Below, piece after piece: positions 867-8,515 of a DNA stretch of 64,000 bases; position 1 is the stretch's first letter; each line of letters begins with the position of its first letter. Where the stretch lies: the sequence record NC_052656.1; one strand, given 5' to 3'. The stretch is from Escherichia phage anhysbys. The notes under the pieces are model-generated. The model worked only from the letters and a program-made list of their open reading frames with translations, ran no database searches and was not told the origin of the DNA. The position numbers and the translations under genes are program-made.

Positions 867-1127
867 TTACTCCGCAATTTGAGCCATGAGATCACGCAGT
901 TCGGTAAAACCGCCTACGTATGTTACCTCCCCGTTCACTTCAGACAGAATTTGTGGAAATGTGCGTGGAGGAACTCCGGTAAGATCAACAACTGTTTTAG
1001 TCATTGATTCTAAATCATAGTCTTGATCAAGACTTAAATATTCAAACTGTTTATTGCGCATGGTTAATAGTTGTTTTGACATTTCGCAAAATTGACAGTT
1101 AGGTTTACCAAAAATTACAAATTCCAT
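867..1127 (-). CDS. glutaredoxin/NrdH-like redoxin
   Basis: 86 aa with N-terminal CQFC (CxxC) active-site motif; thioredoxin-fold size; same module as nrdAB. Confidence 0.75.
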   Translation of the reverse strand: MEFVIFGKPNCQFCEMSKQLLTMRNKQFEYLSLDQDYDLESMTKTVVDLTGVPPRTFPQILSEVNGEVTYVGGFTELRDLMAQIAE

Positions 1128-1969
1128 TACCTCTCCTTATTAAGTAATACTGCTAAAGACTGTTCAATACCTTTATTTAAATCTGATTTTGTAAGATAGT
1201 GACTGGTTACTAATTGTGACTTCACCGGACGTGCTGCTGGAGCATTATAGGTTGAAGCTGATACCGCCGATATCTTAACAGGTTCTGGCATCTGTGTCAA
1301 GATCTTTTCCGCAAACTCCGCCCAAGAAATAAAATGGCTTCCTGCAAAATGGTAAGTCTTAACAGACCTTGACCAACCTGTTTTTAATACTTCAAAAATA
1401 GCTTCTGCTAAATCTGGAGCATATGTTGGACAAGAGAACTGATCAGCAACAACAATAAAATCACGTTGTCCATCATTATAGCGAGACAACATGGTTTTTA
1501 GAAAGTTATTTCCAAATTCGCTATATACCGAGGCTGTTCGAATAATATATGCATTTGGGTTAACTCCTCGCACCATTTTTTCACCGAGTTCTTTCGTATA
1601 CCCATAATTGTTTATTGGGTTAGGTGTAGTATCTTCAAAAATAGGATGAGAATAATTAAAAATATAATCTGTAGAAATATGCACAAAATCAATTTTAAGT
1701 TTGCTGCACACTGCCGCAATATTTGCAGGTCCATACGCATTAACAGCCAAAGCAGTAGCAAAATCATGTTCTGCTTTATCTACAGCCGTATAAGCAGCGC
1801 AGTTAATAACACCGTCTACATAATCTTCAACAATAGCGTTTCGCACAGCTTCAAAATTTGTAATATCTACACGTTCTTTAGGATAAATTAAAGATACATT
1901 CGAAGGAACCACTTTACGTAAAGCTTGTCCCAGTTGTCCATTACCACCTAATACCAGATATGTTAGCAT
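1127..1969 (-). CDS. rmlD: dTDP-4-dehydrorhamnose reductase-like (RmlD family)
   Basis: 280 aa; Rossmann GGNGQLG; NCAAYTAVDKAE, STDYIF, YGYTKELGE (YxxxK), NNFLKTML parallel E. coli RmlD as recalled from memory. Confidence 0.75.
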   Translation of the reverse strand: MLTYLVLGGNGQLGQALRKVVPSNVSLIYPKERVDITNFEAVRNAIVEDYVDGVINCAAYTAVDKAEHDFATALAVNAYGPANIAAVCSKLKIDFVHISTDYIFNYSHPIFEDTTPNPINNYGYTKELGEKMVRGVNPNAYIIRTASVYSEFGNNFLKTMLSRYNDGQRDFIVVADQFSCPTYAPDLAEAIFEVLKTGWSRSVKTYHFAGSHFISWAEFAEKILTQMPEPVKISAVSASTYNAPAARPVKSQLVTSHYLTKSDLNKGIEQSLAVLLNKER

Positions 1970-2529
1970 ACACCCTCACTACGTAGCTGTTGAAAAGATT
2001 TAGCCATTGCATCTTTTGTTGATAAAATAGGTTTAAAATCTTCATCAAAAATCATATCAAAGCCCCAATCGATCCCTATATCAGGATCATCCCAACGTAA
2101 ACTTTGTTCACTAGAAGGGTCGTATGGAGTTGTGCATTTGTATTCAAAGATAGCATCCATACTCAAAACTATAAAACCGTGTGCCAAACCAGGTGGAAGC
2201 CAAAACTGCGTATGGTGTCGTGCACGAAGAACAACACCGTCCCAAGCACCGTAAGTTGGACTATCTTTACGTAAATCTACAGCGAAATCCAATACTTCTC
2301 CACTTACACAACGAACAAGCTTACCTTGCGGGTTGTTTGTTTGGAAGTGCATTCCTCGCAAAACACCGAAGTTTGATTTAGACATGTTATCTTGAACGAA
2401 AGTTTGTCTACCAATAATATCTTCGTATTTTTGTTCATTGTATGTTTCTAAAAAGAAACCACGATCATCTTTATAAACGTCTGGTTTGATAATTACCGCA
2501 CCTTCAATTTTTGTTTTTTCTACTTTCAT
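1963..2529 (-). CDS. rmlC: dTDP-4-dehydrorhamnose 3,5-epimerase (RmlC, cupin fold)
   Basis: 188 aa; DDRGFFLETYN, FVQDNMSKS, VLRGMHFQ, GKLVRCVSGEV.DFAVDLRK, FWLPPGLAHGF, PSSEQSLRWDD track the RmlC family almost block for block. Confidence 0.85.
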   Translation of the reverse strand: MKVEKTKIEGAVIIKPDVYKDDRGFFLETYNEQKYEDIIGRQTFVQDNMSKSNFGVLRGMHFQTNNPQGKLVRCVSGEVLDFAVDLRKDSPTYGAWDGVVLRARHHTQFWLPPGLAHGFIVLSMDAIFEYKCTTPYDPSSEQSLRWDDPDIGIDWGFDMIFDEDFKPILSTKDAMAKSFQQLRSEGVC

Positions 2530-2538
2530 TTTCTCTCC

Positions 2539-2865
2539 TTACCAGACATGTTGAGAAATAATAGTTTCCGTTTTAATGTTATATTTTTCAAGTAGCTCTG
2601 CATAGGCTTCTTTTGCATTCTCATTTAATTGCTCAAGATCTACAGCTACGCTTCCTTCTCCGCCTTCTAAATAAATACCATATATGCAATAAGACTCATC
2701 AGCATCGTAGAAAGGAGAGATGCGACTTAAGTCCAGACCTTCTTGTAAGAACCAGTTAAAATCTCCGTCAAATTCTTCTTCAATTCTAGGATCTTCTCCT
2801 ACAGCCTCTTCCCACTTATTAAAAGGTGCACCCTGTAACATACGCCATTCGATATCAATACCCAT
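2539..2865 (-). CDS. hypothetical acidic protein
   Basis: 108-aa ORF, coding-like composition, in operon context; no recognisable motif. Confidence 0.5.
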   Translation of the reverse strand: MGIDIEWRMLQGAPFNKWEEAVGEDPRIEEEFDGDFNWFLQEGLDLSRISPFYDADESYCIYGIYLEGGEGSVAVDLEQLNENAKEAYAELLEKYNIKTETIISQHVW

Positions 2866-3161: not shown

Positions 3162-3370
3162 TATTCCTCCTTAATTATTTCAAACTTGGCAACACCATTT
3201 ACAATAATATGACCACAAGACATAACTCCTAGCCAAGGATCGCCGTTTTTCTTCAGGCGTTTACCGAATACATCACAAAAACCATTCTTCATTTCGGAGG
3301 CTTCATAAGAAGCCCCTTTGTCAAAAACGTCTTTGAATGTGTCGATTATACCAACACATCTCAAAATCAT
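3161..3370 (-). CDS. hypothetical protein (69 aa)
   Basis: ORF with ATG/TAA overlap to nrdB stop; no motif recognised. Confidence 0.45.
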   Translation of the reverse strand: MILRCVGIIDTFKDVFDKGASYEASEMKNGFCDVFGKRLKKNGDPWLGVMSCGHIIVNGVAKFEIIKEE

Positions 3371-4455
3371 TAGAAGTCAAGCTCCTCATCATCAGAGAGA
3401 TCTTTGTTAGCTGAATTCAATTTGTAATTAGTTAACTGAATCTCTTGGGCTGCTGACTGAATCAAATCAGGATTCAACCATTTTTCCATCCAAGCTAAAG
3501 GACTATGTTTAGGTGCTTTAAACTTGGCTTTCATTTTCAATCGACGATAAATAGGAGCAGCATTGAAATAAACCCACTGTTTAGACAATTCGGCGTTAAG
3601 ACCTACAATAAAACGACCTTCACTAAACAGGTAGTCACACCACTGTTCCTCTTGTTCAACAACAGTGTCGAGGATCAAAGTCAACTCTTCAATATTGTCT
3701 TCGTAAATTTTACGCCAAATTGGGTCATGCATCAATGCATCAATTACAGCATAATCCATCTTAACATGCAAGATTTCATCTAGCATAATTTTCTGGATCA
3801 GCTTACAAGCCCCAACAAACAATTGTTGTTCTGCCATAGCAAAAGTAGCAGAGAAGGAAGATATAAACTGAATACCTTCTAATCCAATCAGGGCTACCAT
3901 CCCTTTAAGAATCAGCAATCGAAGTTCATCGTTAGCTTCAATCAATCCTAGAGCATACTTATGACCAGCTTCTTCCAACTGACCCATGATATCAGCAATG
4001 ATACCCATACGATTGAAAATTTTATCATTAATCATAATCTGATTGATGACTTCAATTGGATCTGGAGTACATTGACGGATTATTTCAGAATACGTTAACG
4101 CATGGAGAACTTCCATTTCACTCTGCTTCATCATCATAGCACAGGCTTCATTGTTACTCAAGAATGGAGAGAACAAAGTGATGATTGATTTTGCAAGAGA
4201 ATCATTTTCCCATTGGAACGATAAGTTTTTAATCATAACATCATAGTTGTTTTTAGAACAAGCTACGAAATCTTTACGTGTCTGATCCAAGTTAACTTCG
4301 TTTTCATCCCAATCTTGTGCTTTTTGAAGTTTGTAGAGTTTGTGCATTTCTGGATAAGTTACGTTAACAGAATCAAAGATCCCTAATTGCTCCCCCAAAA
4401 ATACTGGATATTTTCCTGTTTTGTAAACTTCGTTGTGTAAATTAATTGCTGCCAT
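3370..4455 (-). CDS. nrdB: ribonucleotide reductase class Ia small subunit (NrdB)
   Basis: 361 aa, ferritin-like helical protein directly downstream of nrdA; typical size and architecture; uninterrupted (no intron). Confidence 0.85.
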   Translation of the reverse strand: MAAINLHNEVYKTGKYPVFLGEQLGIFDSVNVTYPEMHKLYKLQKAQDWDENEVNLDQTRKDFVACSKNNYDVMIKNLSFQWENDSLAKSIITLFSPFLSNNEACAMMMKQSEMEVLHALTYSEIIRQCTPDPIEVINQIMINDKIFNRMGIIADIMGQLEEAGHKYALGLIEANDELRLLILKGMVALIGLEGIQFISSFSATFAMAEQQLFVGACKLIQKIMLDEILHVKMDYAVIDALMHDPIWRKIYEDNIEELTLILDTVVEQEEQWCDYLFSEGRFIVGLNAELSKQWVYFNAAPIYRRLKMKAKFKAPKHSPLAWMEKWLNPDLIQSAAQEIQLTNYKLNSANKDLSDDEELDF

Positions 4456-4469
4456 TTAAAATTCTCCTC

Positions 4470-4492
4470 AATAAAAAGGGGCCGAAGCCCCT
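4470..4492 (-). terminator. intrinsic terminator/attenuator between nrdA and nrdB
   Basis: minus-strand GGGGC-TTCG-GCCCC hairpin followed by TTTTTATT. Confidence 0.55.
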
Positions 4493-4499
4493 AGTTTCA

Positions 4500-6740
4500 T
4501 CACATCTTGCAAGCTTCACAACCACCATCAGAATCTTCTTGTGCTAAAGAGTCTGCTGATTTTGTTCTACTATTAAGGTAATACAACGACTTACCACCCA
4601 GTCTAGCAAAATTCAGAATAAACTGCATCTCAGCTTTCACTGATAAACGTCCACCTACCAATTTAGAATAATCTAGCCAAGAATCACAAGAAATTCCTTG
4701 GTCCGTAAACTTGGTAAAGATACCATACATTTCTGCAAGGTCTTTAGCAGGAGTGTCCCAGGCGGACTGGTAGAACATTTTCAGTTTTTCGTAGTCTGGA
4801 ACAATAAATAATACACTACCTTTCTGACTTTGTTTATACATAATAGTATCACGAACAGGATACAGAGAGTTAGTAGTATTGCTTACCAAACTGCTGGACT
4901 CATTAGGTGCGATAGCAGCCAAGACACTGTTACGGATACCACCTTGTTCAATGATTTCAGCACGTAAGCCTTCCCAATCCATTTTAAGATCAAAATTACC
5001 GATACTATCTACTGTTTTAGCATAAGTGTCAATTGGTAGCCAACCTTGAGGCCATTTGGTCTTATCGATCCATTCCGCATTACCTTTTTCCTTAGCCAGA
5101 CGCAGAGAGGCTTTTGCCAACCAAAAGTAATGACGTTCTGCAAGTTCATGCATTAATTTTTTAGCATAAGCATCTGAATAATTTACAAAATTACTTGCCA
5201 AGTAATGTGCTAAGTTTGTAATACCTACACCAATAGATCTACGTGCTTTAGCAGTTATTTCGTTATGTTTAAATGGATAATCCATTGTTTCAATAACGTT
5301 GTCAATTGTCAATACAGTGTAGTATGCAACATCCTCATATTCTTCAGGTAAGACACGACCAGCAACAATAGAAGATAAGAAGCATAAAGCCAATTCTTGA
5401 TCTTCTGTATTCTCACCAGTAAAGAGATCCGGCATACTGTGGAAAGCTTTAGTTGGTAAGAAGATCTCTTGACACAGGTTTGATTGATACACCGTATCCA
5501 GGAAAGGTGTATGGTTGTTAACGTTGTCCGCAAAGAACATGTAAATACGTCCTGTTTCTGCACGTTGAACAATAATCTCTGTCAGAAGATCACGAGCCTT
5601 AACAAATTTTTTCTTAATGCGACGACGGCTTACTTTGTCATAAACTGCATCAAACTCTTCTTCACTTTTATACAAAGCTTCATAAAGTTCAGGAGCATCA
5701 TCACAACTAACTAACATCCAATCTTCGTTTTTTGCTGCTCGACGCAAGAACGAACGGTTAACAACAATAGAATAATCCAGTTTGTCTACTCGTTTATCTA
5801 TAGGTGTTGTTGGATTCTTCAGTCGAATCAGATCGTCGAAGTCTGGTTCAAGTATGGTAAAGGTAACTGTAGCACTACCTCCACGGCTTGCTTGCTTCGA
5901 AGCTCCAACACTATCTTCCATCCATTTCAGATACGGAAGAAGACCACCATGAATAATACGATTATTCTTAACACCTTGACCTGTGGCACGAGTTTGAAGA
6001 TTAACACCAATACCTGCGTTATTCAACGTATACTCATGAGCTAAGTAATTAGCAATGGCTAAAGACTCTGCTGTGTCATCTGCACGGAATAAACAACAAG
6101 ACGCACTTCCTTTGATTGGAGTTCGTAGAGTTGTCAGATATGGTGATGGCAGATTAATCTTAAGATCGCTAACATAAGTATACAGTTTTTTAATATCTTC
6201 TATACGGCGTTCTTTTGGTTGGATCTCCATAACCTTCATTGCGATACCAATGAAAAGAAACTGTGGAGACTCATGCACCACATCGTTTACTGCATCTCGG
6301 ATAAGATATTTATCCACCATCTGACGTAAAACAGAATAGCCATAAGTTAGATTTTTATTATGCTTTACAATCTTACCAATTTCTTTGATCTCTTCATCAG
6401 TATAATCCATTTTAGCCCAATGTCCACGTTCTACCATATCATGATAAAAGGTATTCAGTGAAGGGATACTGTGGTATCCCCCATGAGCCTGTTTGTAAAT
6501 CATACCCAGAAGAAGTCTTCCTGCCATATCACTGTAAGCTTGTGTTTTCTTGTCAATACACGCTGCAATCATTGCTTTATGCAGATCACGTGTAGACACA
6601 CCGTCATAACACCGCTTCACAGCTTCTAATTCAATTTCAGACCAGTTTAGTTTACCTGCTGCAAATTCAGACCACTTGCGAAGTTTTTCTGGATTAAACT
6701 CCTCTATCTTACCGTTAGATTTAGTTACAAAACGAATCAA
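4500..6740 (-). CDS. nrdA: ribonucleotide reductase class Ia large subunit (NrdA)
   Basis: 746 aa; active-site region SNLCQEI, C-terminal Cys pair (CEAC), size matches NrdA. Confidence 0.9.
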   Translation of the reverse strand: MIRFVTKSNGKIEEFNPEKLRKWSEFAAGKLNWSEIELEAVKRCYDGVSTRDLHKAMIAACIDKKTQAYSDMAGRLLLGMIYKQAHGGYHSIPSLNTFYHDMVERGHWAKMDYTDEEIKEIGKIVKHNKNLTYGYSVLRQMVDKYLIRDAVNDVVHESPQFLFIGIAMKVMEIQPKERRIEDIKKLYTYVSDLKINLPSPYLTTLRTPIKGSASCCLFRADDTAESLAIANYLAHEYTLNNAGIGVNLQTRATGQGVKNNRIIHGGLLPYLKWMEDSVGASKQASRGGSATVTFTILEPDFDDLIRLKNPTTPIDKRVDKLDYSIVVNRSFLRRAAKNEDWMLVSCDDAPELYEALYKSEEEFDAVYDKVSRRRIKKKFVKARDLLTEIIVQRAETGRIYMFFADNVNNHTPFLDTVYQSNLCQEIFLPTKAFHSMPDLFTGENTEDQELALCFLSSIVAGRVLPEEYEDVAYYTVLTIDNVIETMDYPFKHNEITAKARRSIGVGITNLAHYLASNFVNYSDAYAKKLMHELAERHYFWLAKASLRLAKEKGNAEWIDKTKWPQGWLPIDTYAKTVDSIGNFDLKMDWEGLRAEIIEQGGIRNSVLAAIAPNESSSLVSNTTNSLYPVRDTIMYKQSQKGSVLFIVPDYEKLKMFYQSAWDTPAKDLAEMYGIFTKFTDQGISCDSWLDYSKLVGGRLSVKAEMQFILNFARLGGKSLYYLNSRTKSADSLAQEDSDGGCEACKM

Positions 6741-7470: not shown

Positions 7471-7500
7471 ATATTATACTAAAACTAATACTAAAGTCAA
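7471..7500 (-). promoter_or_regulatory. sigma70-like promoter (TTGACT-16-TATAAT) on minus strand
   Basis: reverse complement of 7495-7500 is TTGACT and of 7473-7478 is TATAAT; followed by 5'UTR hairpin GGGAGGA/TCCTCCC. Confidence 0.5.
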
Positions 7501-7516
7501 TAATTATTTAAACAGA

Positions 7517-8515
7517 TCACCATTTAGTATGATTTGTTAAAAGTTGACGATGTTGAATCCAGCCTTTGAAATTGCCAGACCAAAACTTACCATTACGATC
7601 TACATGGGTAATACCTGGTTCCCAAGAGTTAAAATCCCAAGGAGCATTGATAAACAAATCTTCAAAACAGTTCTCCCCATATTGTTCGCATGTTTCTTGC
7701 ATTGGGGTGGCTTGATGTTCAAACGGAGAAGCATGAACCTTGCGCCCAGTCAGCAAACGACCATAGATATCTAAAGCTTTATCTTTAGTTGCATTCAAAC
7801 GACGATAGCTAACCTGTGCACAACACGAAGCTGAAATAGCTTTGGCTTCTTCCAAAGTAAGCACAACAACTTCTCCAGATTCATCTTGAACATAGTATCC
7901 ACCAAAAACAAAATGATCGTCACCTTCTGTGCCAATATTATCATAGAAATGGTCTACATAAGGTGTGTGCCATTGCCCTGGTTTCAGCACTTCTGGTGTA
8001 GATTCTTCATACTCTTTGTGCATCTCTTTAGCCAAAGCTTCGATAGTAGGATCGGCTTCTTTGTCATCACGTAGCCACCAGAAATTTTCATATTCTGTTG
8101 CTGTCAGAACTGTTTTAATTCGTTGGAAAGGTTCCAGAAGACGGTTTGCAACTTGTTTGTGGTACCCTGCCAAAGAGAATTCTTCTGCAAAACGTGCTGC
8201 ACTAAGCGCGGCAAGATCCCACCACTCTTGAGCAGTATAACCTGCATCAATAAGAGCATCATGGTCAACACCTTTGTCCTGCATACCAGGTTGGTTAGCC
8301 CCAAAACGATAAGGACGAGCAGGCTGATTTCGAACCATTTCGATCAGTGTTTTAACAGGTATAGCACGGCTAGAAGCAGCATTACGACTGAACAGGCGGT
8401 GAGTCATCAGTTCTGAATGAATAATACGTGGATATTCAAGTTCGAAAGTTACAATCTCTTTTCCGTCTTCAGTGATGGAATGCGCAATAATACTAGCCGA
8501 AATCTGTTTTGTCAT
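7517..8515 (-). CDS. thyX: flavin-dependent thymidylate synthase-like (ThyX family)
   Basis: 332 aa; THRLFSRNAASSRA matches the ThyX signature RHRx7S (cf. RHRIASYNELSGRY) but with Thr replacing the first Arg. Confidence 0.6.
   Translation of the reverse strand: MTKQISASIIAHSITEDGKEIVTFELEYPRIIHSELMTHRLFSRNAASSRAIPVKTLIEMVRNQPARPYRFGANQPGMQDKGVDHDALIDAGYTAQEWWDLAALSAARFAEEFSLAGYHKQVANRLLEPFQRIKTVLTATEYENFWWLRDDKEADPTIEALAKEMHKEYEESTPEVLKPGQWHTPYVDHFYDNIGTEGDDHFVFGGYYVQDESGEVVVLTLEEAKAISASCCAQVSYRRLNATKDKALDIYGRLLTGRKVHASPFEHQATPMQETCEQYGENCFEDLFINAPWDFNSWEPGITHVDRNGKFWSGNFKGWIQHRQLLTNHTKW

Follow-up and report, generated by a model that had tools for sequence, protein, structure and literature searches.

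Here, we present an analysis of two adjacent genes, rmlC and rmlD, on the minus strand of a 64,000-nucleotide stretch of DNA from Escherichia phage anhysbys (NC_052656.1; this whole stretch is referred to as the window). Their products are homologues of the enzymes for the last two steps in the synthesis of deoxythymidine diphosphate (dTDP)-L-rhamnose, and the two genes are what is left, in this phage, of a four-gene rmlB-rmlA-rmlC-rmlD operon. The locus comprises the following features:

1127-1969, minus strand: rmlD, dTDP-4-dehydrorhamnose reductase, a short-chain dehydrogenase/reductase (SDR) of 280 amino acids; assigned from profiles and catalytic residues
1963-2529, minus strand: rmlC, dTDP-4-dehydrorhamnose (dTDP-6-deoxy-D-xylo-4-hexulose) 3,5-epimerase of 188 amino acids; assigned from profiles and catalytic residues
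1963-1969, minus strand: ATGCTAA, the 7-nt overlap of rmlC and rmlD, read from the sequence
2534-2538, minus strand: GGAGA, the Shine-Dalgarno motif of rmlC and at the same time the deletion junction, from comparison with phage phAPEC8

RmlC scores 225.4 bits against the NCBIfam equivalog TIGR01221 (cut-off 155.75; profile positions 1-174 of 176) and matches PF00908 with an E value of 1e-66. Its closest solved structure is Salmonella enterica RmlC (1dzr; E 4e-56), and the mono-epimerases NovW, EvaD, and ChmJ, which belong to the same family, rank lower among the solved relatives. RmlD matches PF04321 (E 1.5e-73) and exceeds the cut-off of the equivalog TIGR01214 by a narrow margin (239.5 versus 224.05 bits), while the enterobacterial-type RmlD model NF007440 is not reached (118.6 versus 308); its closest solved relatives are the RmlD proteins of Bacillus anthracis (3sc6) and Clostridium acetobutylicum (1vl0), both with E values of ~1e-44. 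Based on alignments, RmlC retains the catalytic residues H61, K70, Y130, and D173 (corresponding to H63, K73, Y133, and D170 in S. enterica) as well as the dTDP-binding residues R23, E28, Q46, N48, and R58, and RmlD retains the GxxGxxG cofactor motif (G8, G11, and G14) and the SDR triad T100/Y122/K126 (equivalent to T104/Y128/K132). The start codon of rmlD lies within the stop region of rmlC, which predicts translational coupling of the two genes. An earlier sequence-only reading of this DNA had described the pair as adjacent, overlapping homologues of RmlC and RmlD; its coordinates proved exact, both proteins lie above their equivalog cut-offs, and the loss of catalytic residues, which that reading named as an observation that would speak against it, was not found, every catalytic and cofactor residue checked being present. 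Thus, the assignment of these genes to a bona fide RmlC and an RmlD is sound at the level of sequence, and both proteins would be expected to be active.

The narrow margin of RmlD has a bearing on the sugar that is made. The identity of RmlD is 32% to RfbD of Escherichia coli and does not exceed 45% for any cellular RmlD, the PF04321 family includes reductases that form 6-deoxy-L-talose, and in a distant relative a glycosyltransferase (GT) module related to the one described below is paired with another, RmlB-like SDR. The RmlD homologue might, therefore, reduce the 4-keto group with the opposite stereochemistry, giving dTDP-6-deoxy-L-talose or another 6-deoxyhexose. We consider this very unlikely; the best profile is the rmlD equivalog, the best solved relatives are authentic RmlD enzymes, and the full ancestral operon is a canonical rmlBACD set.

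On long contigs, the relatives of RmlD with 99% to ~51% identity lie on phage-sized ones (113-157 kb); many other matches in this range are on short fragments whose origin cannot be judged. The next matches are cellular, with at most 45% identity, and come from Bacteroidota, Halobacteriovorax, and Erwinia. Compared with E. coli K-12, RmlC is 46% identical to RfbC, the corresponding value for RmlD being the 32% given above. Judged from these identities, the rml genes are old, have been passed on vertically within the lineage of this phage, and were not acquired recently from E. coli. Other phage homologues of RmlC were found in an Acinetobacter jumbo phage, cyanophage S-B05, Sphingomonas phage PAU, and gut metagenomic fragments, and a scan of IMG/VR with RmlC returned only two loci, one of which is a fragment of the same phage type. 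In comparison to the bacterial RmlABCD systems (rfbBDAC of S. enterica and E. coli; 1dzr, 1kbz, and 3sc6), the two enzyme families and the catalytic residues are the same; however, the window encodes the last two steps only, the ancestral phage order is B-A-C-D instead of B-D-A-C, and the phage genes form a phage-specific sequence lineage and reside in a lytic nucleotide-metabolism operon, not in an O-antigen cluster.

The first 4 kb of the window are 98-99.5% identical to ~60 published genomes of the genus Phapecoctavirus (phAPEC8-like phages, Stephanstirmvirinae), and both genes are already labelled dTDP-4-dehydrorhamnose epimerase and reductase in many Phapecoctavirus records; the near-identical complete genome used for comparison throughout is that of phage ETEC-TG (99.5% identical). 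The dTDP-rhamnose pathway of Phapecoctavirus and phi92-like phages was noted previously, together with the idea of DNA modification (PMC7552041), the lack of the thymidylyltransferase and dehydratase genes in phage ESCO37 was noted in 2023 (PMC10269720), and the BASEL paper mentions a "putative dTDP glycosylation machinery" in phi92-like phages (PMC8594841). The feature and its speculative reading are, therefore, already in the literature and annotated in dozens of genomes, and neither the pathway nor the loss of rmlA and rmlB from one such phage is novel here. We found no functional study of these phage rml genes in the literature. Our analysis adds a Shine-Dalgarno-to-Shine-Dalgarno deletion allele that is polymorphic in the genus, the maintenance of the remaining half of the operon, a rationale for host complementation with gene counts, and a portable phage module of three GTs as the likely consumer of the product. 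As a separate observation, genomes that are 93-99% identical over the query region have been deposited as phages of Acinetobacter (ABPW7, OP562383), Klebsiella (ZCKP1, MH252123), Campylobacter (B15, MG065650), and Pseudomonas (PsgM04F, OR584014); this would mean a very broad host range or errors in some of these labels.

The rmlB-rmlA deletion allele

In phAPEC8, rmlB, rmlA, rmlC, and rmlD form a tightly packed minus-strand operon between an open reading frame (ORF) of 108 amino acids and a glutaredoxin gene, and the four genes recur with identical order and syntenic position in phi92, a member of the sister genus Justusliebigvirus. Because phAPEC8 and phi92 share order and position, the four-gene form is the ancestral one in the subfamily. 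The locus in the window is orthologous to that of phAPEC8 and has the same flanks, its RmlC and RmlD being 99.5% and 97.9% identical to those of phAPEC8, but it corresponds to phAPEC8 minus exactly 1876 bp covering rmlB and rmlA. phAPEC8 has the motif GGAGA before rmlB and again before rmlC; the window retains one copy, which follows directly after the stop codon of the 108-amino-acid ORF and is correctly spaced as the Shine-Dalgarno motif of rmlC. We conclude that rmlB and rmlA were lost from an ancestral four-gene operon by a deletion between the two 5-bp ribosome-binding-site repeats and that this event set rmlC directly behind the 108-amino-acid ORF with a functional Shine-Dalgarno motif.

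Consistently, tblastn with the phAPEC8 and phi92 proteins as queries detected no RmlA or RmlB in the 64-kb window, except for the expected SDR-fold cross-match of RmlB on rmlD, and neither gene is annotated anywhere in the ETEC-TG genome. The statement in the sequence-only reading that no RmlA or RmlB is visible in the window is thus borne out and extends, on the annotation of the near-identical genome, to the rest of the genome where that reading had suggested looking; moreover, the absence reflects a precise deletion at this very locus and is not an effect of the window end. With RmlA and RmlB missing, the phage does not encode a complete RmlABCD pathway.

The deletion junction is identical to the base in all 10 two-gene phages retrieved. 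Carriers of this allele include ESCO37, ETEC-TG, dw-ec, ZCKP1, Mt1B1_P17, and nepoznato, and two-gene phages originate from Indonesia, Thailand, Egypt, France, Denmark, and elsewhere. Based on record counts, ~43 of 63 Phapecoctavirus records have rmlAB and ~20 lack them, i.e., approximately a third of the genus has the deletion. When a neighbor-joining tree is built from the 4-kb flanks common to both forms, two-gene phages are scattered among four-gene ones: the four-gene phage BI-EHEC falls inside the clade of the window, and the two-gene phages ESCO37 and Mt1B1_P17 group with the four-gene phage ESCO25. A single monophyletic deletion lineage was rejected on this basis. Recombination between ESCO5 and ESCO37 has been documented (PMC10269720), and the interleaving could have arisen in two ways, through homologous recombination that spread a single deletion allele or through deletion at the GGAGA repeat on more than one occasion. 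Separately, we observed that phages phiWec179, phiWec181, phiWec186, phiWec188, and phiWec190 (LC739533-LC739539) have rmlB-rmlA DNA 86-89% identical to that of phAPEC8, while their RmlC protein is only 64-65% identical, which is the phi92-like level; in these phages the operon is, therefore, a mosaic between the two genera.

Maintenance of rmlC and rmlD and proposed supply of the precursor

Both rmlC and rmlD are full-length in 17 of 17 phages. None of the 10 deletion phages has a frameshift, stop, or active-site change in either gene, and no catalytic residue is at a variable position among the 17 phages. Using pairwise Nei-Gojobori estimates, we compared the ratio of nonsynonymous to synonymous diversity (piN/piS) between two-gene and four-gene phages:

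rmlC: piN/piS 0.032 in two-gene phages and 0.027 in four-gene phages
rmlD: piN/piS 0.105 in two-gene phages and 0.165 in four-gene phages

These sequence comparisons give no sign of relaxed constraint after the loss of rmlBA and indicate that both genes are under purifying selection. We also observed that the synonymous diversity of rmlC was 0.107 among the 17 phapecoctaviruses (the window, L001, L002, and L011-L024), with a very low piN, and that the neighboring genes have values 3 to 9 times below this (rmlD, 0.032; glutaredoxin gene, 0.033; lysozyme gene, 0.012); this pattern suggests that divergent rmlC alleles are exchanged by recombination.

In E. coli, RffH and RffG make dTDP-4-keto-6-deoxy-D-glucose, the substrate of RmlC, for synthesis of the enterobacterial common antigen (ECA). 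Both rffG and rffH are annotated in K-12. DNA-level searches of complete E. coli genomes, in which very divergent alleles of rmlC and rmlD may be missed, gave the following counts:

rffG-rffH: 5309 of 5426 genomes (98%)
rfbD (rmlD): 2386 of 5426 genomes (44%)
rfbC (rmlC): 2348 of 5426 genomes (43%)

Because rffGH are present in 98% of E. coli genomes and rmlC/rmlD in only ~44%, rmlB and rmlA would be the dispensable half of the phage operon. Where phages still have them, RmlA is 65% identical to RffH, and RmlB is 51% identical to RffG. Based on gene frequencies and pathway knowledge, the simplest reading is that almost all hosts already have counterparts of the first two phage enzymes, which makes these redundant, while in over half of the hosts the last two have to come from the phage. 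As isozymes of RmlA and RmlB, RffH and RffG would carry out the two lost steps and thereby complement the phage pathway, in some strains together with host RmlA and RmlB; RmlC and RmlD would then convert dTDP-4-keto-6-deoxy-D-glucose to dTDP-L-rhamnose, so that the phage itself guarantees the two steps of which fewer than half of E. coli strains would be capable.

Alternatively, the loss of rmlB and rmlA could have broken the pathway, leaving rmlC and rmlD as decaying relics; half of the operon is gone and yet the phage is viable, and two-gene phages have been isolated worldwide. The absence of inactivating changes from all 10 deletion phages, with piN/piS values (0.03 and 0.10) at the low level of four-gene phages, argues against decay, as do the retention of a correctly spaced rmlC Shine-Dalgarno motif by the deletion, the presence of host genes for the lost steps in 98% of E. 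coli genomes, and the retention of the GT cluster described below in the deletion phages ETEC-TG, Mt1B1_P17, and ZCKP1. We, therefore, regard it as highly improbable that these genes are relics.

The genes surrounding rmlC and rmlD

The two genes are embedded in the following neighborhood, in which the Nrd proteins, the ThyX-like protein, and the nucleotidase were identified from the ORF list and profiles:

867-1127, minus strand: glutaredoxin gene (PF00462), the start of which overlaps the rmlD stop (TAATG)
2539-2865, minus strand: conserved acidic ORF of 108 amino acids (phrog_15453), directly preceding the rml operon in its two-gene and four-gene forms
3370-4455: NrdB
4500-6740: NrdA
7517-8515, minus strand: ThyX-like protein of 332 amino acids
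8525-9133: NT5C-like nucleotidase

The 108-amino-acid ORF has no Pfam match. The neighbors listed in the sequence-only reading (nrdAB, thyX, and a nucleotidase) are all present, and the glutaredoxin gene is to be added to them. The only terminator-like hairpins that bound the block from nrdB to the lysozyme gene are at 4477-4492 and 183-202; because the promoter and terminator scans gave counts at background, they were used solely for these hairpins. From this arrangement, we predict that the glutaredoxin gene and the rml genes lie within one tightly packed transcription unit extending from nrdB to the lysozyme gene.

Several observations in this region are independent of the rml genes. A near-consensus sigma-70-like site at 7473-7500 on the minus strand (TTGACT, a 16-nt spacer, and TATAAT; 11 of 12 matches) is located just downstream of the thyX-like gene and faces small ORFs and nrdA; counts of such sites in the region are at background. 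The gap between nrdB and nrdA (4455-4500) contains an HNH homing-endonuclease gene in ETEC-TG (L003, 4496-5152) and phi92 (L008, 272-928) and a different small ORF in phAPEC8, while in the window it contains only the hairpin at 4477-4492 and no HNH gene; this gap is, therefore, a second presence/absence polymorphism in the same operon as the rml genes. The ThyX motif of the ThyX-like protein begins with THR where RHR is canonical, and the score of this protein against the NCBIfam thyX model is 31.6 bits (cut-off 87.9). Full-length homologues are present in 1033 phage records, including rV5, ICP1, PAK_P1-like, N4-like, Caulobacter, and Pseudomonas phages; the protein belongs to a large, divergent, phage-specific ThyX clade, for which we know of no biochemical study. 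The idea that this neighbor is a pathway-specific dUMP hydroxymethylase was rejected because the 1033 records span many unrelated groups. Finally, the GC skew of the window changes sign from negative to positive near 22 kb, which, according to the annotation of the near-identical genome, coincides with the transition from minus-strand early and metabolic genes to a plus-strand tRNA cluster and structural genes.

The genomic position of rmlC and rmlD fits an explanation in which the product has no dedicated acceptor. RmlC and RmlD might drain host dTDP-4-keto-6-deoxyglucose from the synthesis of ECA (via dTDP-Fuc4NAc) and O-antigen, and dTDP-L-rhamnose might feedback-inhibit the host glucose-1-phosphate thymidylyltransferases, resulting in altered receptors and/or in dTTP being spared for phage DNA. 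That dTDP-L-rhamnose feedback-inhibits RmlA is well established in enzymology, the genes are in a dNTP-supply operon with nrdAB, the glutaredoxin gene, and thyX, and the two-gene form cannot raise the flux through the pathway but only redirects an intermediate of ECA synthesis made by 98% of E. coli. In addition, surface glycans, ECA among them, serve as receptors for related phages (PMC8594841, PMC11990801). However, the ancestral and still commoner form of the operon also encodes RmlA and RmlB, which would raise dTTP use and fit poorly with dTTP sparing, and the conserved GT cluster, which occurs together with the rml genes, implies the assembly of an actual glycan. We consider such metabolic diversion rather unlikely, whether by draining of the intermediate or by feedback inhibition.

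The glycosyltransferase cluster and its candidate acceptors

The sequence-only reading had proposed a search for glycosyltransferases elsewhere in the genome, and near-identical genomes indeed contain a cluster of four. In ETEC-TG, these are consecutive genes for proteins of 187, 227, 315, and 314 amino acids (L004, 24160-27304), directly followed by the genes for primase-helicase and DNA polymerase. None of the four, which we refer to as GT1 to GT4, is encoded inside the 64-kb window; judged from the near-identical genomes, the cluster lies ~10 kb beyond the window end. It is composed of two paralogues (GT1 and GT2) resembling GT-B enzymes of CAZy-type family GT4, one GT-A DxD enzyme, and one small GT. 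The GT-A DxD enzyme is GT3, which has invariant FDDD and YGxED motifs and a model with a predicted local distance difference test score (pLDDT) of 88. Its structural neighbors include GlfT2, polypeptide GalNAc-T1, SpsA with bound dTDP, and the Listeria rhamnosyltransferase RmlT. From this model, we infer that GT3, as an inverting enzyme of the GT2-like type, is the most plausible user of dTDP-beta-L-rhamnose. Other searches were less informative: sequence searches with GT1, GT3, and GT4 against PDB chains gave nothing significant, NCBIfam gave no match for GT1 to GT4, the protein GT4 has no recognizable relatives outside phage families, and a Foldseek search of BFVD with GT3 returned only generic GT2-like viral proteins, most of them unnamed. 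PADLOC had no match for GT1 to GT4, RmlC, RmlD, or the 108-amino-acid ORF; therefore, there is no link to known defense systems.

RmlC and GT3 have nearly identical distributions, with 63 records each at ≥95% identity, ~60-65 each at 60-90% identity, and near-identical counts of organism labels. More telling than this co-occurrence is the gene order in a distant 135-kb relative, in which GT4 is followed by a gene for an RmlB-like NDP-hexose 4,6-dehydratase, GT3, a GT2-like gene, and then the primase-helicase and PolA genes, i.e., a predicted 6-deoxyhexose enzyme resides inside the GT module.

A conserved GT4-GT3-GT2 module is also present in distant large lytic phages, and GT2 has been duplicated to give GT1 in Stephanstirmvirinae. 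Among temperate phages, HK97-like, P22/Sf6-like, and lambdoid ones contain the module or its GT3-GT2 pair at late-operon or moron positions: in a Serratia prophage, GT4-GT3-GT2 lies between the lysis cassette and the terminase and capsid genes; in a P22/Sf6-like contig, GT2-GT3 lies between terminase and portal; and in a lambdoid contig, GT3-GT2 lies between the Q-antiterminator region and holin. The part of the neighborhood in view contains no nucleotide-metabolism genes in these temperate carriers. The only other phage relatives of GT3 are GTs of Cluster F mycobacteriophages (327 records; ~26% identity over 130 residues, E ~1e-7 to 1e-8), a similarity at the level of a generic GT-A domain. 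Like the Stephanstirmvirinae, Cluster F phages such as Che8 encode multi-GT clusters; in contrast to the former, Che8 is without a sugar-nucleotide pathway. We know of no glycosylated virion protein in any Stephanstirmvirinae phage. Outside of phages, Mimivirus encodes a UDP-L-rhamnose pathway and GTs for its fiber glycans, with a bifunctional eukaryote-type enzyme and an unrelated sequence context. Cluster F mycobacteriophages are reported to O-glycosylate their capsid (Freeman et al. 2023, as cited in PMC11256854 and PMC13445384). The relatedness of GT3 to the Cluster F GTs and the positions of the module in temperate phages speak for an acceptor other than DNA.

An alternative use of the sugar is DNA hypermodification, in which phage GTs would move rhamnose from dTDP-rhamnose onto a modified base and the DNA would evade host nucleases. 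The location of the rml genes in a nucleotide-metabolism block (nrdAB, thyX, the glutaredoxin gene, and the nucleotidase) and of the GT cluster just ahead of the genes for primase-helicase and DNA polymerase fits this idea, as do faint matches of GT3, each over ~40 residues, to the TET-associated glycosyltransferase family PF20691 (E 1e-3) and to the phrog for beta-glucosyl-hydroxymethylcytosine alpha-glucosyltransferase (E 8e-6). The resemblance extends to the T-even phages (T4 with glucosylated and RB69 with arabinosylated hydroxymethylcytosine), which are also lytic myophages with early GTs among DNA-metabolism genes and, in the case of the RB69 type, also with sugar-nucleotide enzymes. However, no dCMP/dUMP hydroxymethylase, TET, or JBP protein is annotated in the near-identical genome (Pharokka/PHROG annotation; no dedicated profile scan of hypothetical proteins was run), and the ThyX-like protein occurs in phage records most of which lack rml and GT genes. 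Vequintavirinae and phi92-like phages, which have the same rml and GT genes, were described as "exceptionally susceptible" to restriction-modification systems (PMC8594841), and the phi92-like phages are the sister genus with the same gene set. The GT folds also do not appear to be specifically AGT- or BGT-like: GT1 is nearest to GT4-family enzymes with lipid-linked or small-molecule acceptors, with T4 AGT and BGT ranking only 15th and 33rd, the structural neighbors of GT3 are all glycan- or protein-directed with no DNA glycosyltransferase among them, and the same GT module is found in small temperate phages without nucleotide-metabolism genes in the sequenced neighborhood. Thus, we consider hypermodification of DNA by this route unlikely. 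Among the roles offered in the sequence-only reading, it is the least supported, while the identification of functional RmlC and RmlD homologues on which that reading was built holds.

Instead, we favor a model in which host RffH and RffG supply the precursor, active RmlC and RmlD encoded by the deletion allele complete the synthesis of dTDP-L-rhamnose, and the product would be consumed by the four-GT cluster next to the primase-helicase gene, outside the window, to build a rhamnose-containing glycan on an acceptor other than DNA. Taken as a whole, we regard this explanation as reasonably probable. Several points weigh against it. The rml and GT modules lie among minus-strand early or middle genes for DNA metabolism and replication, which is the context expected for DNA modification and not for decoration of the virion. 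The GT cluster is outside the window, and its presence in this genome is deduced from relatives; its co-occurrence with the rml genes is largely due to shared ancestry in one subfamily and, therefore, weak evidence for a functional link. GT1 and GT2 resemble retaining enzymes of the GT4 family, which typically use UDP- or GDP-sugars, and possibly only one of the four GTs uses dTDP-rhamnose. RmlD is only narrowly above its equivalog cut-off in a family some of whose reductases produce 6-deoxy-L-talose, the C4 epimer. The power of the selection test is limited because the sequences have diverged little and polymorphism older than the deletion can be brought in by recombination. Finally, no enzyme activity, metabolite, or glycoconjugate has been reported for any of these phages in the searchable literature.

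For the acceptor, we tentatively rank a phage protein of the virion first, short of an even chance. That there is no acceptor, or one of another kind, is possible but not likely; a host envelope glycan or a lipid-linked intermediate, the second-ranked of the named candidates, is doubtful; and DNA, an unlikely acceptor, comes last among them. On a more speculative note, the rml genes may feed the portable GT4-GT3-GT2 phage module, which would put a rhamnose glycan on virion proteins and be the first such system to be described in phages of Gram-negative bacteria; we hold this specific proposal to be questionable at present. If it were true, phages with the rmlBA deletion would represent a natural experiment in which the supply of the precursor has been handed over to the ECA pathway of the host.

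Phapecoctaviruses and phi92-like phages are broad-host-range coliphages that are widely used in therapy and biocontrol studies, and they spend two to four genes on an activated deoxysugar and four more on GTs. A sugar on the virion would influence the pharmacokinetics of therapeutic phages and their recognition by antibodies; one used to remodel the host envelope would matter for superinfection and receptor biology; and one placed on DNA would matter for the evasion of host defenses. With two-gene and four-gene alleles both occurring in nature and rmlCD unevenly distributed in E. coli, a ready genetic system is available for studying host dependence.

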